DNA from: Vicinamibacteria bacterium
GTDB lineage: Bacteria; Acidobacteriota; Vicinamibacteria; Marinacidobacterales; Marinacidobacteraceae
DNA: 64,000 bases
Direction of reading: 5' to 3'
Assembly (NCBI GenBank): GCA_963668695.2
Contig: CAXXLQ010000004.1
Location: 2,400,001 to 2,464,000, forward strand
Position numbers and translations under genes: made by a program. The notes beneath the pieces were generated by a model. It was not told where the DNA came from. It searched no databases and saw nothing but the letters and a program-made list of their open reading frames with translations. Shown piece by piece: positions 5,688-54,784 of this stretch. Numbering within the stretch: position 1 is the stretch's first letter; every line of letters begins with the position of its first letter.

Positions 5688-5900
5688 CCTGTGAACAAAG
5701 TGACGCGGCGTTCGACCGCCGATGCATCCCGCCTGAACCGCGCCGCTCCGCGGCGCTCATCGTTGCGCTTCGGTCGAAATACGCGCGGTATTCCTCCCTC
5801 GCGCGCCTTGTCAGCCGGGCCCCCACCGGGAGAACTGGCCCCACCGGGAGAACTGGGCCTCGCCGGTCTCGGCGCTCACGCCACTTTGTCCACAGGCTGC
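5688..5900. mobile_element. MITE-like repeat (family 1) with two tandem 18-mer insertions
   Basis: Aligns to 46-224 apart from CCCCACCGGGAGAACTGG x2 at 5821-5856. Ends TCCACAGGCTGCTAA. Confidence 0.8.
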
Positions 5901-5914
5901 TAAGGAGGTTCTTC

Positions 5915-7675
5915 ATGACAGAGGGCGATTCCACTCGTGCGCGAGCCGGGGGCGGCGCCCCCGACTCTTCGGTTCGCTACCAGCCGGACGAAAGGCCCCC
6001 GGAGGCGCTCGCCTTCGGTCTCGGCCTCCAGATGGCGATCCTGCAGATCGCGGGCATCGTCCTCACTCCCGCCATCGTGATCCGCGCCGCCGGGCTCGGC
6101 GAGCCGTACCTCTCCTGGGCCGTCTTCGCGGCGCTCGTGGTGTCCGGGCTCTCCACCATCCTGCAGGCGAACCCCGTCGGCCGCTTCGGGGCCGGGCACG
6201 TGCTGCTTATGGGAACTTCCGGCGCCTTCATTGCGATTTCGGTCGCCGCGCTCCGGGAGGGAGGGCCGGCGCTGCTCGCGGTCCTGGTCCTCGTTTCCTC
6301 CCTGTTCCAATTCGGGCTGGCCTTCCGCCTCACCTGGCTGCGCCGCGTGATTACCCCGACGGTCGCCGGGATCGTGATCATGTTGATCGCGGCCACGGTG
6401 ATGCCCATCCTGTTCCCGCTGTTGGGTGACGTTCCCGAGGACGCCCCCGCTTTCGCGGCCCCCCTCTGCGCCGGCGCGGCGCTGGCGGTCTTTGTCGGGC
6501 TCGCGCTGCGGGGAAGGGGAATCCTGCGGCTCTGGGCGCCGCTGATCGGCGTCGTCGTCGGCTCCACGGTGGGGGTCCTTACCGGAATCTTCGATTTCGA
6601 GCCGGTCAGGAACGCCGGCTGGATCGGCATCCCCGCCGGGCGGCCGGGGCTTGACCTATCGTTCGGGGCCTCCTTCTGGGCGCTCCTGCCGGCCTTCGTC
6701 TTTGTGACCCTGATCGGCGCGATCGAGACGATCGGGGACTCCATCGCCATCCAGCGGGTCTCCTGGCGGAAACCCCAGGCGCCCGATTACCGGGTGGTGG
6801 CGGGTGCGGTCGCCGCCGACGGCGTCGGCAACCTGCTTTCGGGTGTTCTCGGAACGGTCCCCAATACGACCTACTCGAACAGCATCTCGATGACCGAGCT
6901 GACCGGGGTGGCCTCGCGGCGGGTCGGGACGTGGATCGGCATCAGCTTCCTCGGTCTCGCCCTCTTCCCCAAGGTCGCCGCCCTGTTCCTGTCCATTCCG
7001 CCGCCGGTGGTGGGCGCCTTTGGCATCGCCCTGATCGGGATCCTGTTCTCTCTCGGCTTGCACATGGTCGTGAGGGACGGCATGAATCTTCAAAAGGCGG
7101 TCATCGTCGGCCTCTCCTTCTGGATCGGCACCGGCTTCCAGGCCCGGGCCATCTATCCCGAGCTGCTCGACGGTTCTTTGGGGGTGCTGCTCGACAACGG
7201 GATGACCGCCGGCGGCTTGATGGCCATTGTGTTGATGGTTTTCCTGAACCTCACCGGCGCCCGGCCGAAACGACTCGACACCAGCCTCGACATGTCGGCC
7301 GGAGCGAAGATCGAGGAGTTCCTGAGACGCCAGGCCGGACGTCGCGGCTGGGATGAGGCCTCGACGGGACGCCTCGTTTCGGCGGGGGAGGAGGCTCTGC
7401 TCACCCTGCTCCCGGATGGAGAATCAGACGAGGCGGGGGCGCGCCAACTCCGGCTCACCGCCCGTACCGGGCGGCGGTCCGCGGAACTCGAGTTCGTGGC
7501 GGCCGCGGGCGGCATGAACATCGAGGATCGGATGGCACTGCTCGGAGACCGTCCCGAGGTCCCCGACGAGAGCGAGATATCCCTGCGCCTGCTGCGGCAC
7601 TACGCGAGTTCGGTGCGCCACCAGAAGTACCCCGACGTGGACATCGTGACCGTGGAAGTGGCCGGCCGCGCCTGA
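5915..7675 (+). CDS. NCS2 family nucleobase (xanthine/uracil) permease with C-terminal HATPase-like extension
   Basis: YQPDERPP, GLQMA, ETIGD, ADGVGN and TTYSNSISMTELTGVASR. AGGAGG RBS upstream. About 140 extra soluble C-terminal residues. Confidence 0.85.
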   Translation: MTEGDSTRARAGGGAPDSSVRYQPDERPPEALAFGLGLQMAILQIAGIVLTPAIVIRAAGLGEPYLSWAVFAALVVSGLSTILQANPVGRFGAGHVLLMGTSGAFIAISVAALREGGPALLAVLVLVSSLFQFGLAFRLTWLRRVITPTVAGIVIMLIAATVMPILFPLLGDVPEDAPAFAAPLCAGAALAVFVGLALRGRGILRLWAPLIGVVVGSTVGVLTGIFDFEPVRNAGWIGIPAGRPGLDLSFGASFWALLPAFVFVTLIGAIETIGDSIAIQRVSWRKPQAPDYRVVAGAVAADGVGNLLSGVLGTVPNTTYSNSISMTELTGVASRRVGTWIGISFLGLALFPKVAALFLSIPPPVVGAFGIALIGILFSLGLHMVVRDGMNLQKAVIVGLSFWIGTGFQARAIYPELLDGSLGVLLDNGMTAGGLMAIVLMVFLNLTGARPKRLDTSLDMSAGAKIEEFLRRQAGRRGWDEASTGRLVSAGEEALLTLLPDGESDEAGARQLRLTARTGRRSAELEFVAAAGGMNIEDRMALLGDRPEVPDESEISLRLLRHYASSVRHQKYPDVDIVTVEVAGRA

Positions 7676-7770
7676 TCACCCTCGATGCGGAGCACCGAAA
7701 TGAGATGCGGAGCGCCGAAATGACCCGCGGGGCCGACAACCGTGGGTGCGTGGCCGGCCGGCCCGGAACG

Positions 7771-8379
7771 ATGGCCGGCGGGATCCGGCGCTTCGCCGCA
7801 GTCGCGCTCTTGTCGCTTGGCCTGGCGGCGACGGCTGCGGGCGCGGAGTCCTGGAGTCTGACGTCGGGCGAGGTGCGGGTCCGGTGCCGCCTTACCGTCG
7901 GGGGGAGCTTCGACGCGGTCACATCGGCGATCTCCGGAACCCTCCGCGAGGAGGGAGCAGGCGGGCGCGGATATGCGGGACCGGTCCGGGTGAGACTCGA
8001 CTTGCTCGACACCGGCATTGGACTCCGAAATATCCATCTTCGTGAGAAGTACCTGGAAGTTGACAGGGGCGAGGCGTTCCGGGAGGCCGTCCTGACCGCC
8101 GTGGAGCTGGCCGCGCCGTTTCCGTCCGGAGCCCGGGGCCACGAAACGAGGTTTGCGGGATTGCTGTCGCTCCACGGGGTGGAGCGGAGGGTCGAGGGAG
8201 AGGCGCAACTCACCCGCCGGGAGGGACGCCTGCGGGTGGAGGCCGAGTTCCCGCTGAGCCTGGCGGACTTTGAGGTCCCGCCCCCCCGCTACCTCGGGGT
8301 GGGCGTGCGTGACGAACTCCGGATCACGGTCACCTTCGATGCCGCCATCGCTCCCTCTCCTCCGGGGGCGCCGCCGTGA
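7771..8379 (+). CDS. YceI family secreted protein
   Basis: Signal peptide, LDTGIGLRNIHLR, GLLSLHGVERRV and LADFEVPPP. Start uncertain (7705-7771). Confidence 0.82.
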   Translation: MAGGIRRFAAVALLSLGLAATAAGAESWSLTSGEVRVRCRLTVGGSFDAVTSAISGTLREEGAGGRGYAGPVRVRLDLLDTGIGLRNIHLREKYLEVDRGEAFREAVLTAVELAAPFPSGARGHETRFAGLLSLHGVERRVEGEAQLTRREGRLRVEAEFPLSLADFEVPPPRYLGVGVRDELRITVTFDAAIAPSPPGAPP

Positions 8380-9524
8380 CGGGAACGCGAAGGCTTCGCG
8401 GGTACTTCTCCTTCGTCTTCGGTGCGGTGGTATCTGTCACGTGCTGGAACGCCGCGCCGGCGGTTGCGGAACCCACGTTTCTCTCGAAGCAATATCCGCG
8501 CTGCACTGCCTGCCACTACTCCCCCTCGGGGGGAGGACTCCTGACGCCGTACGGGCGTTCGCTATCGCGGGAGGAGATTTCGACCTTCGGCCGCCGGAGC
8601 GTTGCGGCGGCCGGGGAAGTCGCCCGGGCCGAGGAGGCATCCCTCTTCGGCGCCGTCCCGAACGACGTCCCGCTGCAGCTCGGGGTGGACCTCCGGCCCT
8701 CGCAGCTACGGATCGAGGTCGCCGGTCGCGACCTCCCCGACCGAAACTTCCTCATGAATCTGGATCTCCAGGCAGCCTGGCGGGCCGGGGAGTGGACCGC
8801 CTACGGCACGGTGGGGCGCCGGCCGGGCGGCGGCCTCGTGTCGTACGAACACTGGATTGCCCGGCAGGTCTCGGACCGGCTGAGCGTGCGGGGCGGGCGT
8901 TTCCTGCCGGCCTACGGAGTGCGCTTCGCCGATCACACGGCGCTTTCCCGAAACCGTCTGGGACTCGCCGAAGACGACCAGATCTACGGGGTGGAACTGG
9001 GACTCTCCACCGATCGCTCGCTGCTCCAGATGACGGTCGGGCCCGGTCGGGCGGAGTCGTTCGTGGACAACGACGGGAGACGGGCCCTCACCGTCAGCGG
9101 CCGCCTGCAGCGCGATCTCGGCTCTCGCACGGTTCTGGTGGGATCGGTTCTCTATCGCGGCGACGCCGCTAGGGCTCCCCGCAGCACTTCGGCGGGAGTC
9201 TCGTTCGGATACGCCCCGGTCCCCTGGCTGGTGACCTGGACCCAGGCGGATGCCCGGCTCCAGGACCCGGCGAGAGGCGATCGAACCATCATCCTCACCA
9301 ACCAGACGTCGGTCGAGGCGTGGCGCGGGATCTGGCTCCGGGTCTCGCCGCAGGTGTTCCGGGCATCGGGGGACCCCCGAGCCGAGATCCGCCGGATGGT
9401 CTACGGGCTGGACCTCTACCCTCGCACCCACTGGCACCTCAACCTGTCCTGGTACCGGGACCGGTTCGTGTCCGCCGGCCGGCTCGATACGCGACTGCTC
9501 GCGCAGTTGCACCTGTATTTGTAA
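8376..9524 (+). CDS. Putative outer-membrane beta-barrel protein with N-terminal CxxCH heme motif
   Basis: Signal peptide, CTACHYSPSGGGLLTPYGR, alternating beta-strand pattern and aromatic C-terminus (QLHLYL). Confidence 0.7.
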   Translation: MTGTRRLRGYFSFVFGAVVSVTCWNAAPAVAEPTFLSKQYPRCTACHYSPSGGGLLTPYGRSLSREEISTFGRRSVAAAGEVARAEEASLFGAVPNDVPLQLGVDLRPSQLRIEVAGRDLPDRNFLMNLDLQAAWRAGEWTAYGTVGRRPGGGLVSYEHWIARQVSDRLSVRGGRFLPAYGVRFADHTALSRNRLGLAEDDQIYGVELGLSTDRSLLQMTVGPGRAESFVDNDGRRALTVSGRLQRDLGSRTVLVGSVLYRGDAARAPRSTSAGVSFGYAPVPWLVTWTQADARLQDPARGDRTIILTNQTSVEAWRGIWLRVSPQVFRASGDPRAEIRRMVYGLDLYPRTHWHLNLSWYRDRFVSAGRLDTRLLAQLHLYL

Positions 9525-9603
9525 CGAGGACCACCTGTCGCCGGGCGGTCCATCCGCTGCACGAAAGGCTGGGGCCGGGACGCTATTTGGTATGTTGCGG
9601 CCC

Positions 9604-10086
9604 ATGACGAGCACGCGAATGGTTTTCCTTCTCGTTCTGGTCGCCGGGGTCTTCGTTGGGTGCGGTTCTTCCGATGATTCGACTCCCGCGGCCCCGACGA
9701 CTCCACCGCCCTCCCCGCCGGCGCCAGCGCCTGCGCCCACACCCCCGCCCACACCCCCGGAAGACGTGCTGATGGCGACGTTTTCGAGTATCCAGGCGCT
9801 GGTCTTCGATCCCCGCTGCGTCGAGCACCATGGCGACCGCGAGGTGAAGGCCGGGCTCAACCTCAGTGAGGGGATGTCTTACGCGAATCTGGTGAACGTG
9901 CCGAGCAGCGAGGCGCCGCTCGATCTGGTGGAGCCCGGAGATGCGGAAAACAGCTACCTGATCCACAAGCTCGAAGGCCGGGTGGGTATCGTCGGGGGCC
10001 CGATGCCGCTCAGCGGGGATCCGCTCACCGCCGAGGAGATCGCGGTAATTCGGGACTGGATCGACGCCGGCGCCCCGAACGAGTAG
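9604..10086 (+). CDS. Lipoprotein with cytochrome c-like domain (atypical CxxHH motif)
   Basis: Lipobox FVGC, Pro-rich linker, CVEHHG, AGLNL, PGDAENSYL, MP...L...I..WI..GA. Confidence 0.7.
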   Translation: MTSTRMVFLLVLVAGVFVGCGSSDDSTPAAPTTPPPSPPAPAPAPTPPPTPPEDVLMATFSSIQALVFDPRCVEHHGDREVKAGLNLSEGMSYANLVNVPSSEAPLDLVEPGDAENSYLIHKLEGRVGIVGGPMPLSGDPLTAEEIAVIRDWIDAGAPNE

Positions 10087-10190
10087 CAGCGGGTGGTGAA
10101 ACCCACGCGGCCCAGTTCTCCCGGCGGGGGCTCGGCCGGCGATCCGCCCGGCTGACAAAGCGCGTGAAGGAGGAGCCCCCACCGGGAGGA
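10087..10190. repeat. Internally deleted MITE family 1 copy with 18-mer variants
   Basis: CAGCGGGTGGTGAAACCCACGCGG begins directly after the TAG stop. 18-mer variants at 10112-10129 and 10177-10190. Confidence 0.65.
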
Positions 10191-10605
10191 ACCCTCATGA
10201 TCGGTCCGCCTGCGCACCCCGCCCATCATGAAAAAGGTGGTGCGGCACCCACGCTGACAGGGCACAGAGTTATCGGCGCCAGTTTTCGCGCTCCCACGCG
10301 ATGCCGGCCGGAGGCCGGCGCTCCAAGCCGTCCCCGCGCTTTTTCCGGTAGGGGCTCCCTGACCGGGGGGCTGCGCCTGTTGGGCTACGTGCCGAGAGGC
10401 GCGGCATCACGGAACCGGGAAGCACGCCGTCTCGCCCCGCTGCGCGGGACGGTGCCGGTGTGAAGCCCCCACCGGGAGAACTGGCCGGCGTTCCCGGGCC
10501 AGTGCGCTATCCGGGGTGTCGGCGTCCCCGCGGCCTCATTTTCGCAGCAACTGGGCCGCCTGGGTTTCACCAACGGCGGCCAAGTTCGAGGTGGCGTCCG
10601 TCGTC

Positions 10606-11010
10606 TCAGCCGTCCGTCCGGCTCCCGAGCAGGTGGATTGGGCCGGGGTAGCGTGCGACGGTCCGGTCGGCGGTCAGGAGGGTGATCCCCTCCACCTGGG
10701 CCTGGGCGATCAGGATCCGGTCGAACGGGTCCTTGTGGATGGGTGGCAGGTGGGCCACCGCGGCGGCGTGGGCGCTGGTGATGGGGAGTTCGAAACAGCC
10801 GACTTCGACCAGCGTGGTGCGGAGTACCTCGGGATCAACGAGGAAATCGGAACGTCCTGTCTGGGACTTGATGGCGACCTCCCAGATGGTCGCCGGGCTG
10901 AATACGGCTGCCGTGTCCGGCGATTCGAGCAAGGCGCGGAGTTCCGGGGTCCGCCGTCCGGGCACGCTGGTCGCCCACAGCAGGACGTGGGTGTCGAGCA
11001 GAAGCCTCAC
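10606..11010 (-). CDS. vapC: PIN-domain toxin of a type II TA system
   Basis: LLLDTHVLLW, SPATIWEVAIK, HKDPFDRILIAQA and LLTAD. Confidence 0.92.
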   Translation of the reverse strand: MRLLLDTHVLLWATSVPGRRTPELRALLESPDTAAVFSPATIWEVAIKSQTGRSDFLVDPEVLRTTLVEVGCFELPITSAHAAAVAHLPPIHKDPFDRILIAQAQVEGITLLTADRTVARYPGPIHLLGSRTDG

Positions 11011-11270
11011 CGGTCATCCTCGATCTTTCCTTTGTACTTGCCCTCGAACATCGCCTGTATCTCGTCGGCGCACATCGTGTCGAAGTCGTCCGGCACCTTG
11101 AACAGGCCGTCGAGACATCCCACGAGGCTCTTCTTCGGGGCTGCCGCCACGGCGGTCACGCGCACGAGCGGCTTTCCGGCGCGGGCGATGATGAACGGTT
11201 CTCCCTCCACGGCTTTTCGCACGAGACGCGACAAATGCGTCTTGGCTTCGTGCATGTTGACAGTGCGCAT
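11007..11270 (-). CDS. Phd/YefM family antitoxin
   Basis: VNMHEAKTHLSRLV...GEPFIIARAGKP, with a 4-nt overlap to the toxin gene. Confidence 0.92.
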   Translation of the reverse strand: MRTVNMHEAKTHLSRLVRKAVEGEPFIIARAGKPLVRVTAVAAAPKKSLVGCLDGLFKVPDDFDTMCADEIQAMFEGKYKGKIEDDR

Positions 11271-11423
11271 CGCGAACTCCCCCGGTTAGTCCACTGCGGT
11301 TAGTTTAGCGGCGAACCGAGAGCGCATCCCGCGGAAGCCGTGTTGTGCTCCCGTCGGCACTCGCGCCGGGGCTCCCGTTTACACTGCCGCCGCAGCACCG
11401 GCCCATCGGCAACCGGCGTCAAA

Positions 11424-11615
11424 ACAATAGAAGCGTTGTCGGGACGCCCGCTGTCCGATTTGGGCTTCTTGGTGAGGTGGCTCAAGCGTGGAATGGCGAG
11501 GGCGAACGAGAACGAGTGGATCTTGGACAACTCACTGCTGAACGAAGGCATCAAGAAGCTTCCCAAGCCTCCGCAGAAGCTGGCCGGCATCGGTTTCCGT
11601 GCAGCGGTTCCATAG
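11424..11615 (+). pseudogene. Possible C-terminal remnant of an AAA+ ATPase gene
   Basis: Lower-GC patch reading LSGRPLSDLGFLVR...IGFR-stop, resembling AAA ATPase C-termini. No plausible N-terminus. Confidence 0.3.
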
Positions 11616-18752: not shown

Positions 18753-18878
18753 GAGATGCGTTGGACGGCCTGAACGCCGACCTTCAGCCAGTTCTCCCGG
18801 TGGGGGCCGGCTTCACCCGTCAACGGCGGTCGAAACTCGCATTCCGTTCGCCCGCACGGTCTGCTCAACCCTTCCTGC

Positions 18879-19756: not shown

Positions 19757-19758
19757 GT

Positions 19759-22504: not shown

Positions 22505-23251
22505 TCAGCGATGGCGAAGCGCGAAATCGGCCCAGACGCCGAAGTGGTCGGACATGGGCTCGTTCCGGTCGTTTCGCTCGGGCCAGATTCCGATGGGGCC
22601 CGTCCGCTTCAGATCCTGCGTGTGCGCGATGTGGTCGACGGCCCGTCCCCGCGCACCGGGGAGGTCCCCGGCGGTTCCGATCTCCAATCCCTCGAAAGCG
22701 CGGAGCAGCGCCTGGTGGATCCTCTGGGGTGTCCGAGCCCGCGGAATCCGCTGATTGAAGTCTCCCAGGACGACGGTGCGCTGCGCGGCGCTCCGATACG
22801 GGAGCCCTGCGAACGCCTCAAGCCAACGTTGGTGGTCCTGCCAGCGTCTCCGGTCTTTTCGGCCGGTGCCGACGTGAGCCCCGTCCCAGGGAATGCAAAC
22901 GCCGACGACGGCGAGCGGACCGCTGGCGGTCTCGGTGACGCCCTTGACGAAGCGCCCGCCCGGGAGATCCTCCGAACCGAGGGAATCCAGCTCGGTCCAC
23001 GGCGATCGGCTCCAGAGAACTACCTTCCTGCGACCTTCGCGCGGCAGGGAATACCCCCAGTTGGTGCCGGCATCAATGATGTGGCCTTCCCCGGGAAGCA
23101 GACCTGCCGATCCTTCCGTGACGCACAGGATGTCGCAGCCGGGGACGGCGAGGGAGGTGCTGACGCGAGCGCCCCTGGCGCTGCCGGGCACGGCCCACTG
23201 GGTGTTCCAGGTACCGAGGCGGACGCTGGCCAGCTCGGTGATCTTCGTCAT
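22505..23251 (-). CDS. Endonuclease/exonuclease/phosphatase family protein
   Basis: GTWN, DILCVTE, LGDFN, VDHI and SDH motifs. Confidence 0.88.
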   Translation of the reverse strand: MTKITELASVRLGTWNTQWAVPGSARGARVSTSLAVPGCDILCVTEGSAGLLPGEGHIIDAGTNWGYSLPREGRRKVVLWSRSPWTELDSLGSEDLPGGRFVKGVTETASGPLAVVGVCIPWDGAHVGTGRKDRRRWQDHQRWLEAFAGLPYRSAAQRTVVLGDFNQRIPRARTPQRIHQALLRAFEGLEIGTAGDLPGARGRAVDHIAHTQDLKRTGPIGIWPERNDRNEPMSDHFGVWADFALRHR

Positions 23252-23332
23252 CTGCGCGGCGGGGAACTCTACCGGGCTGTGGAGAGACCCGCGCGCTCGT
23301 TTCGCCCGCTCCCGGCGGGCGACGCCGGCTGG

Positions 23333-23894
23333 CTAGCGGCTGGAGGCAGACAGCGTGGGCCAGGCGCCGCGCACGGAGCCCCAGTGGCGAGCGAGCGTCC
23401 GAAATCCATTCGACGACGGATCCGGAGTGGCCGGGTGTCCCTCGGTGTCGAGGTAGAGGCAGCCGACCTCGGCGGCCGGAAGTTCCGCCACGAGCCTTCG
23501 CGCTCGCTCGACTGCCGCCAGCCAACGTCGTTTGAGGACGCCGAGGTCGAGCGGTTTTCGGAGCGCCAGCCGGTCGAGATCCCCCTGGGTATAGGCCGCA
23601 TGCCGCGCCGCCTGCTCCAGCAGGAAGTCCGGGGTAACAGCCTGTGGTGGAACCCGGGTGAGCGCCGAGGCCGGCCAGTTCTCCCGGTGGGGGCGAGGCG
23701 CCCGGCTGACAAGGCGCGTGAGGGAGGAATACCTAGTGTATTTCGACCGAAACGCAACGATGAGCGGCGCGAAGCGACGCGGTTCAGCCGGGATGGATCG
23801 CCGGCCGAGCCCCCACCGGGAGAACTGGGCCGCGTGGGTTTTGCCACAGGCTGATAAGGCGCAGCACCTCCGCCTGGGCGGAACTCAGCGGCAT
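23333..23894 (-). pseudogene. Disrupted nucleotidyltransferase-type (AbiEii-like) toxin gene
   Basis: N-terminus MPLSSAQAEVLRLI (from 23894) runs into a MITE. A coding-like C-terminus PDFLLEQAARH...EVGCLYL...RHWGSVRGAWP ends at TAG 23333. The middle is missing. Family assignment is from recall. Confidence 0.6.
23638..23853. mobile_element. MITE-like repeat (family 1), reverse orientation, two 18-mers
   Basis: TIR CAGCCTGTGG...CCACAGGCTG. 18-mers at 23675-23692 and 23811-23828. Confidence 0.82.
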
Positions 23895-24157
23895 AGCCGC
23901 GCCGCGGTGATGAACCCTCTCCGGCCGCCGTGTTGCCGCAGACCCCGGACGATCTCCGGGACGTCGTCGAGGGTGACGGCCAGGTCGGGGCGAAGGTGCC
24001 AGAAGCACTGGGCGTGGAACGTGCGGAACGCTCGCCGGGCCTCGCGGACCCGCACCATGTCGCGGGCTTGGGCGGACGACAGTTTGCGGCGGCTGCGAAC
24101 CCCGCCCTTGCGGCCAATCCGGGAGAAGTACTCCCGGAGCGCGGCGGGCAGGTCCAT
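23885..24157 (-). CDS. Small basic protein, probable antitoxin partner of the disrupted toxin
   Basis: 90 aa (IGRKGG...ARRAFRTFHAQCFW...GLRQHGG). Its stop overlaps the start of the downstream pseudogene. Confidence 0.65.
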   Translation of the reverse strand: MDLPAALREYFSRIGRKGGVRSRRKLSSAQARDMVRVREARRAFRTFHAQCFWHLRPDLAVTLDDVPEIVRGLRQHGGRRGFITAARLCR

Positions 24158-24211
24158 GGTGGTATTTTAACATAAGCGGCTTACGTTTCTGCCGGTTGTT
24201 TCAGTCGTTAA

Positions 24212-24427
24212 CAGCCTGTGGTGAAACCCACGTGAGCGCCGAGGTTGGCCAGTTCTCCCGGTGGGGGCGAGGCGCCCGGCTGACAAGGCGCGTGAGGGAG
24301 GAGCCCCCACCGGGAGAACTGGCCCGGGTGTATTTCGACCGAAACGCAACGCAGAACGCAGCGAAGCGGAGTGGTTCAGCCGGGATGGATCGCCGGTCGA
24401 ACGCCGCGTGGGTTTTGCCACAGGCTG
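24212..24427. mobile_element. MITE-like repeat (family 1), reverse orientation, two 18-mers
   Basis: TTAA-CAGCCTGTGG...CCACAGGCTG-TTCA. 18-mers at 24249-24266 and 24305-24322. Confidence 0.82.
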
Positions 24428-24750
24428 TTCAGGTGGACGCGCCTGCCACGATCGTCGCCAGGATGGACACCCGGCTCGAACGGCTCGAGAACCAGCAGTC
24501 GCGCCTGATCCGGGGCGTCCTCGGGCTGCAGGCCGCGCTTGCGGTGGCCATCATCACGCTCCTGCTCCGGTCCTGATCCGGGGGACTCTCCCCCGGAGAC
24601 TTTTTCCAGGTCGCGCACTATCCATCCGGGTAGCGGACGCGGTTTCGCGGCCCGGAGGCCGCGATGCCGACCTGGAGGTCGGCGGTTCCTTACGCCAACT
24701 CTGGCCCGCGGTCCCTCCGTAGTCCGTCCCCGTCTCCTAGAATCCCGGCG

Positions 24751-29266: not shown

Positions 29267-30186
29267 CAGCCGGTGGTGAAACCCACGCGGCCCAGTTCTC
29301 CCGGTGGGGGCTCGGCCGGCGATCCATCCCGGCCAAACAGCCTGTGATGAAACCCGCGCGGCCCAGTTCTCCCGGTGGGGGCTCGGCCGGCGATCCATCC
29401 CGGCTGAACCGCGCCGCTGCGTGCCGCTCATCGTTGCGTTTCGGTCGAAATACACTCGGGCCAGTTCTCCCGGTGGGGGCTCCTCCCTCACGCGCCTTGT
29501 CAGCCGGACCCCCACCGGGAGAACTGGCCAGCCTCGGCGCTCGCGTGGGTTCCACCACCGGCTGTTCACCGCGTCGCTGCGCGCCGCTCATCGTTGCGTT
29601 TCGGTCGAAATACACCCGGGCCAGTTCTCCCGGTGGGGGCTTCTCCCTCACGCGCCTTGTCAGCCGGGCGCCTCGCCGGCCTCGGCGCTCACGCGGGTTC
29701 CACCACCGGCTGTTCACCGCGTCGCTTCGCGTCGCGCGTCGTTGCGTTTCGGTCGAAATACACCCGGGCCAGTTCTCCCGGTGGGGGCTTCTCCCTCACG
29801 CGCCTTGTCAGCCGGGCCCCCACCGGGAGGACTGGCCCCACCGGGAGAACTGGGCCTCGCCCCCACCGGGAGAACTGGCGGCCTCGGCGCTCACCCGGGT
29901 TTCACCACAGGCGGTTAACAGCCGGTGAACGAAGTCACGCGGCCCAGTTCTCCCGGTGGGGGCTCGGCCGGCGATGCATCCCGGCTGAACTCTCCGCTTC
30001 GCGCCGCGCGTCGTTGCGCTTCGGTCGAAATACACCCGGGCCGGTTCTCCCGGTGGGGGCTCCTCCCTCGCGCGCCTTGTCAGCCGGGCCCCCACCGGGA
30101 GGACTGGCCCCACCGGGAGAACTGGGCCTCGCCCCCACCGGGAGAACTGGCGGCCTCGGCGCTCACGTCACTTCATCCACCGCCGG
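29267..30186. repeat. Cluster of about five full or partial MITE family 1 copies carrying ~14 18-mers
   Basis: Repeated CAGCC(G/T)GTG...CAC(C/A)GGCTG ends joined at TTAA/TTCA, with the recurring core CGTTGCGTTTCGGTCGAAATACAC. Confidence 0.9.
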
Positions 30187-47826: not shown

Positions 47827-49110
47827 TCAGGGGGCGAGTGAACTCACCGGCACCACCGTTACCCCATCCGGCCGCTCGTAGCCGTACCCCGTTCCGGTCA
47901 CTACCGCGAGCTTCGGCGGGTGGCCGACCCGGGCTGTATCCACTCGGTCGCGCAGCCGGAGAAGGTTCCGGGCTGCCTCATCGATGTTGGCCGCCCCACC
48001 GAGCTTGATTTCGATCGGCATCCACCCACCTTGGGCAGTCTCGATGATCACATCCACTTCGAGGCCGGTGTTGTCGCGATAGTGGCTCAATTCGGCATCG
48101 TGAGCCTGCGCGTAAACCCGTAGATCCCGAACCACCAGCGCTTCGAAGAGGAAGCCGAGGTAGGGGAGGTCGCGAAGAAGTGCTTCAGGTGAGGCGCCGA
48201 GCGCCGCGGTGGCCAGCGACGGGTCGATGAGATAACGCTTTGGCGTGGTCCGCAGGCGGGATCGGGACCGGAGATGCGGTGAAAAAGCGGGGAGATCCTC
48301 GATCACGAAGAGCCGGGCAACGTCGTCCAGATACTCGGCTGCGGTGCGCGGGGTGGTTCCGTTGCCGATATCCGCCGCGAGCGTCCTGAGAGTGACGGCA
48401 GTCCCGATATTCCGAGCGAGAGAACGCAGGAGGCGTAGCGCCCGGGTCGGATCTCGTCTTCTTCCCGAGACCCGGTTCAAGTCGGCGAGACGGATCTCGT
48501 TCAGGTAGTTCCGTACGAAGCGACGGGCGGCCGGGAGGTCCTCCCCCAGACTCCCGGGCCAACCTCCGCGACAGATCGCTTCAGCTAGGTCCGGAACGCC
48601 GATGTCCGGGGCTGGAACCGAAACGCGCTCACCCGCAATCAGATCACCGAGCGAGACCTCGCCCGTCGACAGCCCCAGCTCGAACAGGGACATCGGACGC
48701 ATTCGCACCCGAGCGAGCCGCCCGGCACCGGTGTGGCGGGTGAGGTCGTCGGGTGGGACGGCGGATCCAGTCAGTAAGAACTGTCCCTTTTTCCCGCTTA
48801 GATCGGCTGCGCGGCGTACCGGGTTCCACAGCTCAGGTGCGACCTGCCATTCATCGAGGAGACGAGGCTTCGGCCCCTCCAGAACGAGCCAGGGATCGGT
48901 TCTTGCCGCTTCGAGGGCCTTGGGGTCGGCGTCGAGGAAAACCTCGCTGGCGGCTGCGCGCCGGGCGGTTGCGGTCTTTCCACATGCCTTGGGCCCCTCG
49001 ATGAGCAACACCGCCGCACTCCGGAGCTGCTCTTGAAGCTCTGTGTCCACGATGCGGGGCCGGTAAGGGTCCGGGACGCCGGGCGGTGGAAATGCGGAGG
49101 GGAAGTCCAT
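47827..49110 (-). CDS. AAA_14 ATPase with DUF4143 domain
   Basis: EGPKACGKT, LLDEWQ, FLLTGS, HTGAGR, RGGWP, GFLFE and YRD..GLEVD...IEIK. Confidence 0.92.
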   Translation of the reverse strand: MDFPSAFPPPGVPDPYRPRIVDTELQEQLRSAAVLLIEGPKACGKTATARRAAASEVFLDADPKALEAARTDPWLVLEGPKPRLLDEWQVAPELWNPVRRAADLSGKKGQFLLTGSAVPPDDLTRHTGAGRLARVRMRPMSLFELGLSTGEVSLGDLIAGERVSVPAPDIGVPDLAEAICRGGWPGSLGEDLPAARRFVRNYLNEIRLADLNRVSGRRRDPTRALRLLRSLARNIGTAVTLRTLAADIGNGTTPRTAAEYLDDVARLFVIEDLPAFSPHLRSRSRLRTTPKRYLIDPSLATAALGASPEALLRDLPYLGFLFEALVVRDLRVYAQAHDAELSHYRDNTGLEVDVIIETAQGGWMPIEIKLGGAANIDEAARNLLRLRDRVDTARVGHPPKLAVVTGTGYGYERPDGVTVVPVSSLAP

Positions 49111-49157
49111 GGGGAGGCGGCGCGGCGCAGTCGCAGCCGCGCCTGGCATCACCATAG

Positions 49158-49239
49158 CATGTTTTGCAACGAGTCTATAACATGTATTGCAACGGATTCA
49201 TGGCATGTTTCGCAACATCCCTAGGGCAGGGTTTGCAAG
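49158..49239. promoter_or_regulatory. Four 13-bp direct repeats at exact 23-bp period
   Basis: CATGTTTTGCAAC (49158), CATGTATTGCAAC (49181), CATGTTTCGCAAC (49204) and CAGGGTTTGCAAG (49227), upstream of the ATPase gene. Confidence 0.7.
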
Positions 49240-49327
49240 CTACCGAGACCTGCTCCGGAGCCGCAACTCTCTTTCACGCGCTCGACGTGAGCCGGCAGTA
49301 CGCGATTTCGCCCGCCTTCGGCGGGCT

Positions 49328-49522
49328 GTGCCGACCTGGAGGTCGGCGGCCAGTTCTCCCGGTGGGGGCCCCTGTCCAGCGGTGCCATCTGCGCGCGCGG
49401 CGGTACGCGGTTTCGGCGCCCTGTCGGGCGACGGTGCCGGTCTGAAGACCGGCGTTCCCTGGCTCCCGCGCAGCGGTGCCGACCTGGAGGTCGGCGGCCA
49501 GTTCTCCCGGTGGGGGCCCCTT
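49328..49522. repeat. REP-like family 2 cluster with two 18-mer insertions
   Basis: TGCCGACCTGGAGGTCGGC x2 and TGCCGGTCTGAAGACCGGC. 18-mers at 49350-49367 and 49498-49515. Confidence 0.78.
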
Positions 49523-49543
49523 GGTTCCCGGCCGTTCCGACCC

Positions 49544-50797
49544 TCAGGCCATGATGAGGGGTCGCAGGGCCTTCAGCCCGGCCAGCGCCCGCTCCACGTG
49601 CTCCGCCGTGTTGTAGAGGTGCGGCGAGAGGCGGAGGCCGCCCGAAGTCGAGCCCGCGATCCCGTGGTCGTCGTACATCCGGGAGAAGACTTCGGCGCGG
49701 GATTCGGCGGGCACCTCGATGATGACCACGCCCGCCGAGAGCTCGTCTGCCATCGGCGTGACGAGCGGGATCCCGGCTTCCCTGATGCCCTCCTTGAGGC
49801 GGCGGGCCAGGTCGATCATGCGTTTCTCGACCCGGTCCGGGCCGATCTCGCCGTGGAATTCCGCGGTGGTGCCCATCGCCGCGAGACAGGCGTCGTCGCG
49901 CTGCCCCATGGACTCGAATTTCCGGGCGCCGGTGGGATCGGGGTCCGCATCGCCGCCCCAGCCGGGGGCGACGATCGACGGCCACAGACGCGGAATGATC
50001 TCCGCGCGGATCGCGAGCACTCCGCACTCCTTCGGGCCGCAGAACCACTTGTGCGAGCTGCTCGAGAAGGTGTCGGCGCCGATCCCCGGGACGTCCACCG
50101 ACAGTCCGCCGAAGCTCTGGGCGCCATCGACGTGGACGTGGATTCCCCGTTCGTGGGCGGCATCGGCGATCAGGCGTGACGGCATCCGGATGCCCGACAC
50201 GTTGGACACGTGGGTGATCGCGACCACCTTGGTGTTGGCCCCGAACGCCTCGATGAACGGGGCGGCAAGGTCTTCCCCGCTTGCGGGGGCCTTCGGGACC
50301 GACACCCGGCGCACCGAGAACCCGTAGCGGGCGGCGCGCACGTCCCACGCCACGTTGTTCGTGGGGTGGTTCTGGTCCCAGAGGAGGACCTCGTCGCCCT
50401 CCCCGAGCGGGATCCCGGCATTCACGATGTTGTTCGCTTCGCTGGTGTTGCGTACGAGCGCCAACTCGTCGCCCGAGACTCCGAGTTGCGCTGCGACCTG
50501 CTCCCGGGCCATTTCCCGGAGATCCGCGAACTTCCCGCGGTTCTGGAACGAGCAGTCGTGGTCGATGTCCCGGGTCAGCTCGCTGACCCGGTCGCCGACC
50601 GATCTCGGCGACGGACACAGGTTCGCGGCGTTCATCGGCACCCGGTCCTCGTCGAAGGGGAACTCCCGACGCACCATGCGGAACAGCGTTTCGTCGTCGG
50701 CGGCAGCGGCCCGGACGACGGGCAGGAGGGCCGGCGTCGCGGCGGCGGTGCGCAGGAATGCGCGCCGGGTCAGGGCATTGGAGAGTGACGTCGTCAT
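49544..50797 (-). CDS. Class V PLP-dependent enzyme (isopenicillin N epimerase/CefD-like), Tat-exported
   Basis: TRRAFL, VRNTSEAN, VDGAQ, SSHKWFCGP and RLSPHLYN. Confidence 0.88.
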   Translation of the reverse strand: MTTSLSNALTRRAFLRTAAATPALLPVVRAAAADDETLFRMVRREFPFDEDRVPMNAANLCPSPRSVGDRVSELTRDIDHDCSFQNRGKFADLREMAREQVAAQLGVSGDELALVRNTSEANNIVNAGIPLGEGDEVLLWDQNHPTNNVAWDVRAARYGFSVRRVSVPKAPASGEDLAAPFIEAFGANTKVVAITHVSNVSGIRMPSRLIADAAHERGIHVHVDGAQSFGGLSVDVPGIGADTFSSSSHKWFCGPKECGVLAIRAEIIPRLWPSIVAPGWGGDADPDPTGARKFESMGQRDDACLAAMGTTAEFHGEIGPDRVEKRMIDLARRLKEGIREAGIPLVTPMADELSAGVVIIEVPAESRAEVFSRMYDDHGIAGSTSGGLRLSPHLYNTAEHVERALAGLKALRPLIMA

Positions 50798-50822
50798 GGC
50801 GGGCGCCTCCGGATTTCGGAGT

Positions 50823-52010
50823 CTACCGGGTTCCCGGAGCCGCCGCCGTTACCGCCCCTGCGGCCGCGCGGGCGCTGCCCCCGCTGATGATGCGGCGGAA
50901 GAGGATGGGGCAGGTGATCGAGGTGGCGGCCGCGATCATCACCGCGATGGCGCGGTCCTCCCGGTCGAGCAGGCCGAGTTCGAGTCCGACGGTGGCCACC
51001 GCGATGACGAGGCTCAGGCGGGCGGACAACAAGAACCCGGTCGCCGCCGCGGCGCGCAGCGAGAAACCCCAGATCATGAAGAGCAGCGCCGGCACGAACT
51101 TGACGAAGAAGGCCACCGCGATGATGACCCCGGCGCGCGCGAGCACCTCGGGATCGAGCAGCACGGCGACTTCGAAGCGGAGCCCGACGCCGATGAAGAA
51201 GATCGGGATCAGGAAGCCCCAGGAGATTCCGGAGAGTTGGCGGCGGAGTCCTTCGGGCGGATGGAACAGCAGCGCGAAGACTCCTCCCGCGAGGAAGGCC
51301 GCGAGAATCGGCTCCACGTCAAGAACGGTCGAGAGCCCGACGAAAATGAGGAGCAGCGCGAGCGCCCCGCGGATCCCCATCTCGTCGGGATCGTCTTCCC
51401 GGAAGAGTCTCGTTGCCGCGCGCGGGTGCCACCAGAGGAAGAGCTTCATCACGCGGAGCACCAGCACCACCGCGATGAGCAGGACGGGACCGTTGATGAG
51501 TTCGATGCCCCACCCGTCGCGCGCCCAGATGGTGATCTCCGCGACCAGCAGCAACGTGACGAGGTCCGCGATCACCGCGGAAACCAGGATGGACTGCCCC
51601 AGGCTTTCGGCGGTGATCCCCGCGCTTCGCAGGCTGGGGAGGACGAGGGCCGCCGAGGTGGTTGCGAGCAGCGGGGCGTAGAAGACCGGCAGGTCCAGCC
51701 AGACGGTCGCGAGGAACGAAAGCGCGAACGTGCCCGCGAAGACGATGAGCGCCTGACCGATCGGGCCCGCTCCCCCCCGTCTCAGCGCGGGGAAATCGAT
51801 CTCGAAGCCGGCGAGGAACATCAGCATCAGGAGCCCGAGTTCCCCGATCTGGTCCAGCAGCGCGGTCCCTTCGACCAGCCCGAATACGGGGCCGACCAGC
51901 ACCCCGAACAGGATCTCGACGACCACTGCGGGCACCCGCAGCCAGTTGGCCACCGGGGGCAGCAGGAAGGCGGCGATCCCGATGATCACCAGCGCGCCGG
52001 AACCGTCCAT
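50823..52010 (-). CDS. Cation:proton antiporter (CPA2 family)
   Basis: About 12 TM helices, LMFLAGFEID, ATTS, IAD and PIFFIGVG. Confidence 0.88.
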   Translation of the reverse strand: MDGSGALVIIGIAAFLLPPVANWLRVPAVVVEILFGVLVGPVFGLVEGTALLDQIGELGLLMLMFLAGFEIDFPALRRGGAGPIGQALIVFAGTFALSFLATVWLDLPVFYAPLLATTSAALVLPSLRSAGITAESLGQSILVSAVIADLVTLLLVAEITIWARDGWGIELINGPVLLIAVVLVLRVMKLFLWWHPRAATRLFREDDPDEMGIRGALALLLIFVGLSTVLDVEPILAAFLAGGVFALLFHPPEGLRRQLSGISWGFLIPIFFIGVGLRFEVAVLLDPEVLARAGVIIAVAFFVKFVPALLFMIWGFSLRAAAATGFLLSARLSLVIAVATVGLELGLLDREDRAIAVMIAAATSITCPILFRRIISGGSARAAAGAVTAAAPGTR

Positions 52011-53299
52011 CAGGGACTTGCTCCCAGCACGGCGGCCGCGGCAAGGGCGAGGGCGCCGGTGGCCCGCACGAGTTCCTCGACCGGGCAGTGCTCGTCCGGC
52101 CGGTGCGCCAACTCGAGGATCCCCGGCCCGTAGGCGACGCAGTCCGGGACTCCCGCGATCCGGGCCACGTGCTTGTGGTCATAGGTGCCGGGGCTCGCTA
52201 CCTCCTCGACCTCGACGCCCAGCGCGCCCCGCACCCCGTAGCGGACGGCCTCGATGGCGAGGGAGCCCGGTGGCGTCGTTACCGGTTCCACGGTGAGCAG
52301 TTCCTCGATCCGGTAACGCCGGCCGGGATCCCGGCCGGCGCAAGCCGCCACCCGGCGGGCTACCTCCTCGCGAACCTCGTCGAGTCCTTCTTCGGGAAGA
52401 AAGCGCCGGTCCACCACGACCTCGGCCCGGTCGGGAACCTGGGGGCTTTCGGTTCCGGCGCCCGCCTGACCTCCCCGGATGCTGTTCACGTTGACGGTCG
52501 CTGCCCGCGCGCCCTCGGGAACCACCGGAAGCGCGGTTCTCCGGGCAGCCAGCTCCGGAACCCATACGGTTCGGATGTCCTCGAGGAGCGGTGCGAGGTG
52601 GGTGATGGCGTTGTGGCCCAGGAACGGCATGCTCCCGTGTGCGACCTCGCCCTCGGAAATGACCCGAAACCAGTACACCCCGCGGTGCCCCACACACACC
52701 CGGCGGGACCCGAAAGGTTCGGGGATGATCACTGCGTCCGTGTCGGGAGCGATGCGGCCGGACTCGGCCAGCCAGGCGACTCCGGCGTGTCCCCCGGTCT
52801 CCTCGTCCACCGTGCCAGAGACCTCGAGGGTGCCGTGGAGCCGGGCGCCCGCCCGCCGGAGCACCTCCGCCGCGAAGAACGCGGCCGCGATGCCCCCCTT
52901 CATGTCGCTCGCCCCGCGTCCCCAAACCGCCCCGTTTCGCACCTCCCCGGAAAAAGGATCCGTGGTCCAGCCGCTTCCGGCGGGGACCACGTCGAGGTGA
53001 CCGTTCAGATGCAGGCGCCGGCCGCCGCTCCCCAGCCGGCCCATGACGTTTTGCCGGGGGTAGCGCTCCGAACCCGGGGGACACGACTCCCGGGGGGGAT
53101 CGTCGAACTCCACCTCGAAACCGGCGCCTGCCAGCCGCTCGCCGAGAAGTGCGGCGCACTCCGGATAGTTCTCCCCGGGAGGGTTCACGGTGGGGACCCG
53201 GATCAACTCGCCGCAGAAGGCGGCGATCTCGTCGCGGGCCGCTTCCGCCTGGCGCAGGATCCTGGCTTCGAGGCCGGAGGCAACCGGGTGGAGCGGCAT
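52010..53299 (-). CDS. ArgE/DapE family M20 deacylase
   Basis: LNGHLDVVP, GRGASDMKGG, DEETGG, AHGSMP and AHRPDE. Confidence 0.92.
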   Translation of the reverse strand: MPLHPVASGLEARILRQAEAARDEIAAFCGELIRVPTVNPPGENYPECAALLGERLAGAGFEVEFDDPPRESCPPGSERYPRQNVMGRLGSGGRRLHLNGHLDVVPAGSGWTTDPFSGEVRNGAVWGRGASDMKGGIAAAFFAAEVLRRAGARLHGTLEVSGTVDEETGGHAGVAWLAESGRIAPDTDAVIIPEPFGSRRVCVGHRGVYWFRVISEGEVAHGSMPFLGHNAITHLAPLLEDIRTVWVPELAARRTALPVVPEGARAATVNVNSIRGGQAGAGTESPQVPDRAEVVVDRRFLPEEGLDEVREEVARRVAACAGRDPGRRYRIEELLTVEPVTTPPGSLAIEAVRYGVRGALGVEVEEVASPGTYDHKHVARIAGVPDCVAYGPGILELAHRPDEHCPVEELVRATGALALAAAAVLGASP

Positions 53300-53346
53300 C
53301 GAAACCGAGGATACCGCCCTGCTGCGCCGCTGGCGGAAGCTTGGGG

Positions 53347-53382
53347 TTGACTTGCCGTAGTTATTTCGATACTATTGGAACT
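53347..53382 (+). promoter_or_regulatory. Sigma70 promoter with overlapping ArsR-type operator, probably leaderless
   Basis: TTGACT-N17-TACTAT, 7 nt before the ATG. Imperfect inverted repeat TTCGATACTATTGGAA. Confidence 0.72.
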
Positions 53383-53736
53383 ATGGAAAGGACAGCCGCC
53401 TACTCCACCACCAACGCTCTGGAGACGCTCTGCGCACTTTCCCAGGAGAGCCGTCTCGACATCTTCCGGTTGCTGGTCAGCAACGGTCCGGAGGGACTTC
53501 CCGCCGGCGCCATCGCCAGGCAGTGCAACCTGCCGGCGCCAACCTGCTCGTTCCATCTCAAGGAACTCAAGAAGGGTGGGCTCCTCAATTGCTGCCGCCA
53601 CGGGAGGTTCCAGATCTACACCGTGAACTTCCGGGCGATCCGGGCGCTGCTCGGCTATCTGACGGAGCACTGCTGTGCCGATCACGCCTGCGACCATGAG
53701 GGTTCGAACGGCGCCGCAAATGGGGAACTTCGATGA
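53383..53736 (+). CDS. arsR: ArsR/SmtB metalloregulator (C-terminal CC type), copy 1
   Basis: ALSQESRLDIFRLLV..GPEGL.AG, SFHLKEL and YLTEHCC...C. Confidence 0.88.
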   Translation: MERTAAYSTTNALETLCALSQESRLDIFRLLVSNGPEGLPAGAIARQCNLPAPTCSFHLKELKKGGLLNCCRHGRFQIYTVNFRAIRALLGYLTEHCCADHACDHEGSNGAANGELR

Positions 53737-54039
53737 GACCGGGATCCGGGGGCGGATCGCCCCCCCCGGAGGTGATGCGGATAGACCGGGCATCGGAAGT
53801 CGCCAGCGAGGCCGCCTGTTATCCCGTCTGGCGGCTGCGGGCGCCAAAGGGGCAACGAGGGGACGAACCGCCGGGAAGATGAGACCCCGTGGAACTACCT
53901 GGCGCGAATCCTGATCTGGCGGTCGCATCGCGTCTGGCGGTCCCATCGCATTCGGCGGTCTGTGGACAAAGTGGCATGAGCGCGGAGACCCCCACCGGGA
54001 GAACCCGGTGACTCGCGCGGCTCCGGTTACGGATGGGGG

Positions 54040-54074
54040 TTGACTTTCTGTTTTAGTTCGATATTATTGGAAAT
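54040..54074 (+). promoter_or_regulatory. Sigma70 promoter/ArsR operator, copy 2
   Basis: TTGACT-N16-TATTAT and TTCGATATTATTGGAA, homologous to 53347-53382. Confidence 0.68.
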
Positions 54075-54425
54075 ATGGAAACGCCGCCCGCCTATTCCAC
54101 CGATAACGCCTTGGAGATGCTCTGCGCACTCTCCCAGGAAAGCCGTCTCGATATCTTCCGGTTGCTGGTCAGCAGCGGTCCGGAGGGACTTTCCGCGGGC
54201 GCCATCGCCAGACATTGCAACCTCCCGGCGCCAACCTGCTCGTTCCACCTCAAGGAACTCAAGAAGGGTGGGCTGCTCAGTTGCTGCCGCCACGGGAGGT
54301 CCCAGATCTACACGGCGAACTTCCGGGCGATCCGGGGGCTGCTCGGATACCTGACGGAACACTGCTGTGCCGAGGACGACTGCGAGCACGAGAGTTCGAA
54401 CGGCGCCGCAAACGGGAAACCTTGA
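54075..54425 (+). CDS. arsR: ArsR/SmtB metalloregulator, copy 2
   Basis: Close paralogue of 53383-53736. Confidence 0.88.
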   Translation: METPPAYSTDNALEMLCALSQESRLDIFRLLVSSGPEGLSAGAIARHCNLPAPTCSFHLKELKKGGLLSCCRHGRSQIYTANFRAIRGLLGYLTEHCCAEDDCEHESSNGAANGKP

Positions 54426-54530
54426 TCAGGACAGGGAACCGGGGGCGGATCGGCCGCCCCCGGAGGTGATGCGGCTGGACCGGCTATCTGAGGTCGGCTG
54501 CCCGGTGCTTCCGGCACAGAAATAGGGGGC

Positions 54531-54784
54531 CACAGGCTGTTAACAGCCGGTGGTGGAACCCGGGTGAGCGCCGAGAGCGGCCAGTCCTCCCGGTGGGGCG
54601 AGGCGCCCGGCTGACAAGGCGCGTGAGGGAGGAGCCCCCACCGGGAGAACTGGCCCGAGTGTATTCCGACCGAAACGCAACGATGAGCGGCGCGCAGCGA
54701 CGCGGTCAACAGCCGGTGGTGGAACCCGCGTGAGCGCCGAGGTTGGCCAGTTCTCCCGGTGGGGGCGAGGCCCAGTTCTCCCGA
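54531..54784. repeat. MITE family 1 cluster truncated by IS21
   Basis: CACAGGCTG-TTAA-CAGCCGGTGG junction. 18-mers at 54581, 54636 and 54747, and a truncated copy at 54772-54783. Confidence 0.8.

Follow-up and report, generated by a model that had tools for sequence, protein, structure and literature searches.

The 64 kb stretch of a Vicinamibacteria genome examined here (contig CAXXLQ010000004.1, nt 2,400,001–2,464,000; hereafter the window) is interspersed with copies of an 18 nt sequence, CCCCACCGGGAGAACTGG (the 18-mer), most of which lie in a miniature inverted-repeat transposable element (MITE) or in hairpins of the repetitive extragenic palindrome (REP) type. The locus raises the question of what this 18-mer is, and how it enters and spreads through other repeats. 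Mobile DNA is usually defined by an encoded or borrowed enzyme and by ends that are tens of bases long; the 18-mer is present in more than 1000 copies, is unchanged across genera, and is able to lengthen a protein by six codons in frame. The answer favoured here, with a probability of about 45%, is that it represents a real, lineage-wide micro-element, a variant of the kind known as small dispersed repeats (SDRs), which would be spread by a trans-acting joining activity together with the multiplication of its host repeats.

Abundance and distribution of the 18-mer

The window belongs to an assembly (G000) of 4.1 Mb and 67.5% G+C in four contigs, 91.7% complete and with 9.3% 'contamination'; the related genomes compared with it carry other G-numbers (G001, G004, G008 and so on). 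An initial annotation, made from the letters of the window alone, had described about 30 copies in both orientations. There are 23 exact copies, compared with an average of 0.00 over 100 dinucleotide-shuffled sequences, and 29 copies at up to three mismatches (0.18 expected); each coordinate listed in that annotation holds a copy, and 14 fall within the array at nt 29292–30150. The annotation had also called for a genome-wide count and a check against sequencing adapters. Across G000 there are 1288 exact copies (640 forward, 648 reverse), and an adapter match is refuted (see below). The exact copies are part of a set of 1631 at up to two mismatches, in which the commonest variant is A13G (156 copies, chiefly the first unit of tandem pairs).

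Contigs C1 and C3 and both ends of C4 duplicate other stretches of C4 (C1, C3 and C4:~50–150 kb versus C4:~3.83–3.90 Mb). With such large parts of the assembly duplicated, copy numbers for G000 come out a few per cent too high; the duplications also fit the 9.3% 'contamination' figure. Along the main contig, no replication-strand bias was seen over 20 bins. Neighbouring 18-mer clusters 0.5–5 kb apart are more often in the order +- than -+ (134 versus 36), because the sites mirror each other in the palindromic MITE.

Counting G000, the exact 18-mer occurs in 21 of 41 related genomes, which derive from many assemblies; not one of the 41 contains the reversed control pattern. All 15 congeners carry it, in 5 to 631 copies each (564 in G001), and it was found in five of the 16 genera searched; G019 has 36 copies. 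It is absent from the 16 genomes of two sister families, and in three genera of the same family with 0 or 1 exact copy, matches at up to three mismatches are no commoner than those of the control. A scan of one genome per species found at least 94 stretches with the sequence, nearly all in metagenome-assembled genomes (MAGs) titled Acidobacteria, Vicinamibacteria or 'Candidatus Marinacidobacterium'; the few single matches in other taxa, among the matches listed, are expected by chance given the size of the collection. One viral contig has a single match to the 18-mer, and plasmids gave no match to the 29292–30150 array. Judged from these sequence matches, the patchy spread over genera is typical of a mobile element. 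Text searches of a literature collection for the 18-mer, its complement and 16 nt cores gave no match; 'Marinacidobacterium' was likewise unmatched, and searches on tiny nested elements in general yielded nothing relevant.

The possibility that the sequence is an adapter, a primer or an artefact of assembly can for practical purposes be dismissed. It is refuted by the occurrence in 21 genomes with a silent control, by the in-frame presence of the 18-mer in a conserved gene of two species (see below), and by independent short-read contigs, from three studies, that bridge the copy at 18788 without a gap.

Precise insertion at filled and empty sites

Filled and empty versions of the same site were collected by using as anchors the 10-mers three bases off each copy. 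Of 574 anchor contexts, 234 also occur without the 18-mer. Among 357 distinct filled/empty pairs, 190 differ by +18, 130 by +19, 22 by +17 and 15 by other values; the boundaries of the unit vary by no more than 1 nt in 320 of these pairs, and no target duplication was seen in any of them. At the junctions, one to three bases differ between the filled and empty states and have most often been turned into GC. Examples (the slash marks the point of insertion) are AAC/GCC to AGC[18]GCC, AAT/ACC to AGC[18]CCC, GA/CCGG to GGC[18]CCGG and CGC/CGC to CCC[18]CGC, and the commonest pattern is the replacement of A, AC or AT by GC plus the 18-mer. Of 1287 copies scored across G000, 1120 have G at position -2 and 1122 have C at position -1. 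In practice the unit measures 19–21 nt: usually GC, then the 18-mer, and sometimes an extra C. Empty targets often contain ACCGG or CCGG, motifs also found inside and just after the 18-mer.

Most of what had been proposed for these junctions holds. The paired sites within the window (171–187 versus 5810–5862, ~29670 versus ~29855, ~63 versus ~29284, ~49443 versus 10461, and the site at 18776) are as described, as are the gain of about 18 nt without duplication, the overwriting of a few bases, and the GC 5′ of most copies with AC as the exception at 29510 and 53990. Tandem stacking also occurs. Of 1480 runs in G000, 1336 are single units, 140 are double, two are triple, and one each has four and five units. 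Its shortness and invariance rule out slippage as well as an ordinary MITE, two origins that had already been dismissed. No case of self-nesting was found at split points 5–13 of the 18-mer.

A second view was given by the MITE itself, of which 87 copies were aligned to the empty copy at window nt 39–226. Insertions that measure at least 8 nt number 163, and the 18-mer unit accounts for 144 or more of them; the remainder are internal duplications of the MITE and an element of about 90 nt. The latter (CCCGAGCC...CTCCGGAAG) is inserted near MITE reference position ~35 (the region of site A) in several G000 copies, nearly at the position used by the 18-mer, and is present once as three tandem units. 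The empty site B (window nt 114–128) resembles the complement of the 18-mer, and the aligner yields a 12 nt piece there in 39 of the 87 copies; this likeness may be chance, or a target preference for unit-like sequence.

An insertion in a transporter gene

The initial annotation had placed no copy in an intact gene. This stands for the window, where none of the 29 copies passes a coding test applied to both flanks, and fails at one site genome-wide: among 130 pairs of a copy and an open reading frame (ORF) in G000, a single gene site passes. It accounts for two of the 1631 copies, since the assembly holds the gene twice. The host gene encodes an RND-type transporter of 1066 aa, in which the 18-mer reads PHRENW in frame. 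Its orthologue was found in 16 of 16 genomes of the genus, with all frames open. The insert is present in G000 and in its nearest relative, G001, and exactly those 18 bases are missing in 14 of the 15 congeners, G008 included, which shows the insertion to be derived. The closest empty allele, that of G008, reads GAGCCCGCGCGGGAT and is the centre of a 10 bp palindrome; the filled allele reads GAGCCCGGC[18]CGGGAT. Identity between the flanks of this site and those of any other G000 copy extends to at most 5+1 bases, so the insertion was independent of flanking homology. By these sequence criteria the copy in the transporter gene is a derived, non-homologous insertion.

Host repeats and hairpins

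About four-fifths of the 18-mer copies lie at recurrent positions, about eight in number, in the MITE. REP-type hairpins hold about one-tenth, and the remaining copies are dispersed. The MITE is an imperfect palindrome of ~190 nt (window nt 39–226, and also 5680–5905, 23636–23853 and 24209–24429). Its inverted ends hold a perfect DnaA-box-like nonamer, TTATCCACA or the complement, at ~205–215 of the first copy. The flanks of the 18-mer fall into 96 clusters at 75% identity, with 63 singletons, and into 40 clusters at 65%; in 31 of the 40, position -2 is G, and the same number have C at -1. DNA folds of eight sites put the 18-mer in or beside a hairpin in all eight, with copies at or near the tips, in agreement with the hairpin association noted earlier. 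The 18-mer is a discrete unit that enters non-homologous DNA at the tips of G+C-rich hairpins or beside them, where it replaces one to three bases.

Full-length insertion sequence (IS) elements are also found in or adjoining REP hairpins, at the loci orthologous to ~18760 (in G001) and ~49440 (in G008). The G008 element splits the REP loop and is accompanied by a TCTGA duplication.

Turnover among congeners

The syntenic 80 kb of five congeners was compared with the window. The array at 29292–30150 corresponds to a spacer of 179–196 nt without a MITE in G004, G008, G014 and G009, and to one MITE with three 18-mer copies in G001; in G000 it comprises 4.5 MITEs with 14 inserts, an example of how quickly repeat-rich spacers are rebuilt in these symbiont-type genomes. 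In the MITE at 23636–23853, both sites filled in G000 are empty in G001, and three sites distinguish the MITE at ~5680–5905 from its orthologue in G004. More generally, the 18-mer is variably present or absent between orthologous MITEs and REPs of G001, G004 and G008.

Such differences could arise with no dedicated machinery at all: the unit would spread by gene conversion among paralogous MITEs and REPs and reach new sites through microhomology-driven template switching, or through short-patch illegitimate recombination of plentiful single-stranded repeat fragments at stalled hairpins, its sequence being held exact by selection for a host function. In the accessible part of a preprint on short-patch double illegitimate recombination (bioRxiv 10.1101/2023.11.22.568220), a short ectopic patch replaces a few bases by way of microhomologies, which matches the replacement of 1–3 nt by ~20 nt seen here; the bases that travel with the unit, GC at its left and CC or GCC at its right, are also the most frequent flanks of donor copies, ACCGG and CCGG are often present in targets and occur inside and just after the unit, and orthologous REPs show wholesale conversion besides gain and loss of the 18-mer. 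The products of that process are, in the same accessible text, highly variable, while the 18-mer is constant: its boundaries hold to within 1 nt in all but 37 pairs, a single word makes up the great majority of MITE insertions, and the event in the transporter gene shared at most 5+1 flanking bases with any donor. In addition, the 18-mer has no known host function and does not fold. On balance, spread of this passive kind is an unlikely explanation.

A long form with the same ends

A search of G000 for orphan halves of the 18-mer revealed a longer, non-coding repeat (the long form), represented by 29 left and 20 right ends; 15 of these are paired, spanning 148–378 nt. The left end opens with the 18-mer's first 14 nt, after which comes a conserved ~60 nt module, and at the right end a ~25 nt module leads into AACTGG, with which the 18-mer also ends. 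The two ends joined give the 18-mer with AA counted twice, the split being GAGAA/CTGG with AA on either side. Long forms occupy the MITE and REP sites of the 18-mer, with equal junction bases; the copy at 10177–10554 has the left flank of MITE site B and the right flank of site A. In this respect the short unit resembles an excision footprint or internal-deletion derivative, since it matches both termini of a longer repeat that shares its sites. In G010 (C1:648495–651556), three tandem units of 383 nt each consist of a REP and a long form.

The initial annotation had offered an excision scar among its explanations. A candidate parent, which it had not seen, does exist in this longer non-coding repeat; no already described IS was found in that role. 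The 18-mer could then be a scar or collapsed derivative of the long form, its interior lost by excision or deletion across the AA, that spreads as a passenger. The shared ends, sites and junction bases speak for this, as does the locus at 18788, which is filled by the short unit in G000 and G004 and by a long form in G008; no paralogue in the G008 genome is closer to this copy than 80% identity, so it seems to predate the split of the species. A remnant of 18 nt also preserves the reading frame, which fits the copy in the transporter gene. The distribution of the long form argues the other way. Its interior occurs in 14 of 15 congeners and in none of 12 genomes of six other genera. Two of these genera, g4 and g5, hold 220 and 36 exact short copies, respectively, and none of their four genomes has the long-form interior; their orphan left ends (3 and 2) are mutated copies or result from IS insertion, and none is a long form. 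The short unit therefore appears independent of the long form. The ends of the long form are decayed, with the 14 nt complete in just 14 of the 29 left ends, whereas 1288 of the 1631 short copies are exact over 18 nt. The subterminal modules with AA on both sides have the look of an element inserted into the 18-mer. These observations make an origin as a scar distinctly unlikely.

As to the long form itself, the sequence comparisons lean slightly towards its being a second element that uses the 18-mer as a site, rather than the parent of the 18-mer. About 29 copies would then have been split at GAGAA/CTGG, which suggests that recombination machinery in these cells reads the 18-mer specifically. 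In a genome of another genus (G018:C1:3060160–3063174, at ~1500), an unrelated insertion breaks the 18-mer after its 12th base, so the unit may be the target of more than one element.

Proposed mode of spread and the search for an enzyme

The favoured reading, that of an SDR-like micro-element, would combine two processes. Most of the ~1,300–1,600 copies would be passengers in MITEs and REPs, which multiplied or exchanged sequence among paralogues, as the context counts and the orthologous MITEs and REPs differing only in 18-mer content suggest. Primary insertion would depend on a trans-acting, sequence-specific DNA-joining activity that recognises the unit and acts on extruded or single-stranded hairpins. 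The 18-mer would be a non-autonomous element cut down to little beyond its recognition sequence, like the SDRs, and in this genus the unit would double as a site, some 29 copies per genome being split by the non-coding long form of ~150–380 nt. A stronger version of this proposal, in which an undescribed DNA-insertion machinery would need no substrate beyond the 18–21 nt sequence and would write it at hairpin tips in place of 1–3 bases, is rather doubtful.

Several results weigh against the favoured reading. No candidate enzyme for insertion of the 18-mer was found in G000. Searches of that genome gave no match for Y1 HUH/RAYT transposases (PF01797) or for the reverse transcriptase domain RVT_1, with control genomes matched in both cases, and nothing above cut-off for TnpB; Y2 HUH proteins also gave no match, in a search whose control was silent too. 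The HUH/RAYT route put forward by the initial annotation is accordingly left without a Y1 candidate. A small GIY-YIG nuclease (Ssn-like) was not found in the 91.7%-complete genome, the one GIY-YIG match (PF01541) being a 664 aa frame that is most likely UvrC. The IS110 family, also named as a possible source, is represented by one intact gene, which is inserted in a REP and not in the 18-mer, and whose untranslated regions have no similarity to the unit. Relatives of this gene are multi-copy in several congeners; the G000 query found no match in G019 and only a fragment in G001, both of which carry the 18-mer. The family is patchy across relatives, and IS110 as the driver is unsupported. Nor is there an IS with 18-mers as its ends: the few multi-copy regions bear no such ends, and no interior between two 18-mers 0.5–5 kb apart recurs three or more times in G000, the two-copy interiors being assembly duplications.

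The remaining points against it concern the sequence itself and its history. Four stretches of 29–30 nt around the 18-mer fold no better than shuffled sequences (z = 0.10 to 1.49), so the unit lacks the hairpin read by known enzymes that act on single-stranded DNA. In a set collected at up to two mismatches, its minor-allele frequency inside MITEs is 0.2–0.4%, compared with roughly 1–8% at conserved MITE positions; this gap is modest, and much of the uniformity of the 18-mer may reflect recent bursts of the MITE. Outgroups polarise just one insertion, that in the transporter gene. Two orthologous REPs show patterns that call for parallel gains, precise losses or gene conversion; the REP itself differs at these loci, indicating that conversion between repeats is also acting.

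RNA-templated writing at nicks, of a reverse-transcriptase or telomerase-like type, had been raised as well. Tandem runs of up to five units and an invariant sequence, as if copied from a single template, would agree with it, but the absence of an RVT_1 match in G000, the predominance of single units and the failure to find a conserved master copy or RNA family for the 18-mer make it very improbable. Rfam gave no match at gathering score in the window, and the array produced only chance matches to microRNA-like hairpins. An origin from tRNA or tmRNA was rejected, as the best of 58 predicted RNAs matched 15 of 18 bases and is a doubtful 98 nt call. Six tyrosine recombinase matches were found in G000, none of them in the window.

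Comparison with known systems

The closest precedent, as an analogue and not a homologue, would be the SDRs of Nostocaceae. These were reportedly described by Elhai et al. in 2008 (Genome Res 18:1484) as very short dispersed repeats of 21–27 nt in high copy number, nested in MITEs and other repeats and entering short defined targets with precision, whose mobility was inferred from filled and empty homologues; SDR4–6 are said to share a hairpin secondary structure, and an RNA-templated, reverse-transcriptase-type or telomerase-like writing is said to have been proposed for them. To our knowledge, no enzyme is known for the SDRs and their mechanism is still unresolved. The 18-mer resembles them in being very short, nested in other repeats, precisely inserted and without an identified enzyme, and in having otherwise identical empty homologues. 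It differs in its occurrence in MAGs of Acidobacteriota (Vicinamibacteria), in its length of 18–21 nt against 21–27 nt for SDRs, in having no hairpin of its own, unlike SDR4–6, and in the rewriting of 1–3 junction bases, the in-frame gene insertion and the long form with the same ends. In the accessible portions of two papers, SDR5 enters HIP1 at one exact point, between its third and fourth nucleotides (PMC4390886), and SDRs are stated to be absent outside Nostocaceae (PMC5861425).

Neisserial dRS3/NTS repeats are, according to the available sections of PMC11893778, ~20–28 nt long, present in hundreds of copies in intergenic mosaics, serve as an attachment site for a phage recombinase, and are read by the small nuclease SsnA. 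Those repeats form a hairpin and are flanked by ssnA, whereas the 18-mer does not fold and G000 has no small single-domain GIY-YIG gene; clean insertion polymorphism like that of the 18-mer is not described for dRS3 in the same sections. With REP/BIME and REPIN-RAYT systems, the 18-mer shares an intergenic, high-copy and hairpin-associated occurrence in mosaic arrays. It is, however, not palindromic, REPs serve as its hosts, and the Y1 HUH partner is unmatched.

Like MITEs and excision footprints, the short form equals the fused ends of a longer repeat, and is non-autonomous and defined by its ends. Unlike MITEs, it has no terminal inverted repeats (CCCC... versus ...CTGG) and no target duplication, and it differs from both in its length of only 18 nt, the lack of an autonomous partner among the sequences found, and the invariance of what would be a footprint. 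REP-targeting IS110 elements (bridge-RNA) resemble the present case in the absence of a long target duplication, in insertion into REP hairpins and in an AA 'core' flanking the long form, but the recombinase gene, as searched for with the G000 query, does not track the 18-mer. Derivatives of IS200/IS605 would be expected to come with the Y1 transposase, TnpB and hairpin that are missing here. DNA uptake sequences are over-represented short words that occur in both genes and spacers and are linked to competence; the 18-mer is over-represented, has one gene site, and gains new copies by clean insertions, not point mutations.

At 18–21 nt, the unit is at or below the size of the smallest proposed mobile elements, the SDRs. 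Should the stronger version of the favoured reading be true, it would be the smallest mobile element known and its machinery a natural 'writer' of short inserts. Complete genomes of the family with and without the unit make a presence/absence search for the responsible gene feasible, unlike in the cyanobacterial case.

Features of the window

The copies of the 18-mer and related features of the window are given in Table 1.

Table 1. Copies of the 18-mer, the reference MITE and the long form in the window (positions in nt of the window).
Position	Strand	Feature	Evidence or comparison
39..226	+	empty reference MITE, 188 nt, inverted ends, no 18-mer	reference for the 87-copy alignment
5821..5856	+	tandem pair of exact 18-mers, MITE site C	paralogous MITE 39–226 empty; G004 orthologue has one copy after AC
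10112..10129	-	18-mer, 1 mismatch, MITE site A, truncated MITE	sequence match
10177..10554	+	long form, 378 nt, non-coding interior with REP	starts with first 12 nt + GA (A13G variant of the first 14), ends with AACTGG
10467..10484	+	exact 18-mer, REP hairpin nested in the long form	fold: 3′ loop edge
18788..18805	-	exact 18-mer, REP hairpin stem-loop junction, unique flanks	18-mer at the orthologous spot in G004, long form in G008
23675..23692	-	exact 18-mer, MITE site D	orthologous MITE of G001 empty, difference +19
23811..23828	+	exact 18-mer, MITE site A	G001 orthologue empty: AAC/GCC versus AGC[18]GCC (high-scoring segment pair of 470 nt)
24249..24266	-	exact 18-mer, MITE site D	sequence match
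24305..24322	+	exact 18-mer, MITE site B	sequence match
29292..30150	both	array, ~4.5 MITE units, 14 copies, of which 11 are exact and 3 have 1 mismatch	sites A to D occupied; two tandem pairs
49350..49367	-	exact 18-mer adjoining REP2 hairpin	sequence match and fold
49498..49515	-	exact 18-mer adjoining REP2 hairpin	1-mismatch copy at the orthologous spot in G001
53990..54007	+	degenerate 18-mer, 2 mismatches, adjoining MITE end	sequence match
54581..54764	both	three copies in truncated MITEs: 54581- (1 mismatch), 54636+, 54747-	sequence match

When contigs were mapped to the window, the summed depth reached 146,457 in MITE bins, which collect paralogues, compared with about 200 for genes. 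A 36 nt skip at 5820–5857 was present among the mapped contigs, and is not assignable to that locus owing to the paralogues. An RNA run over the window did not show transcription. At 23250–24200, where G000 has MITEs, G001 and G008 carry extra genes, including one for a coiled-coil-like repeat protein, and G000 appears to have lost about 700 nt there by recombination between two copies of the MITE.

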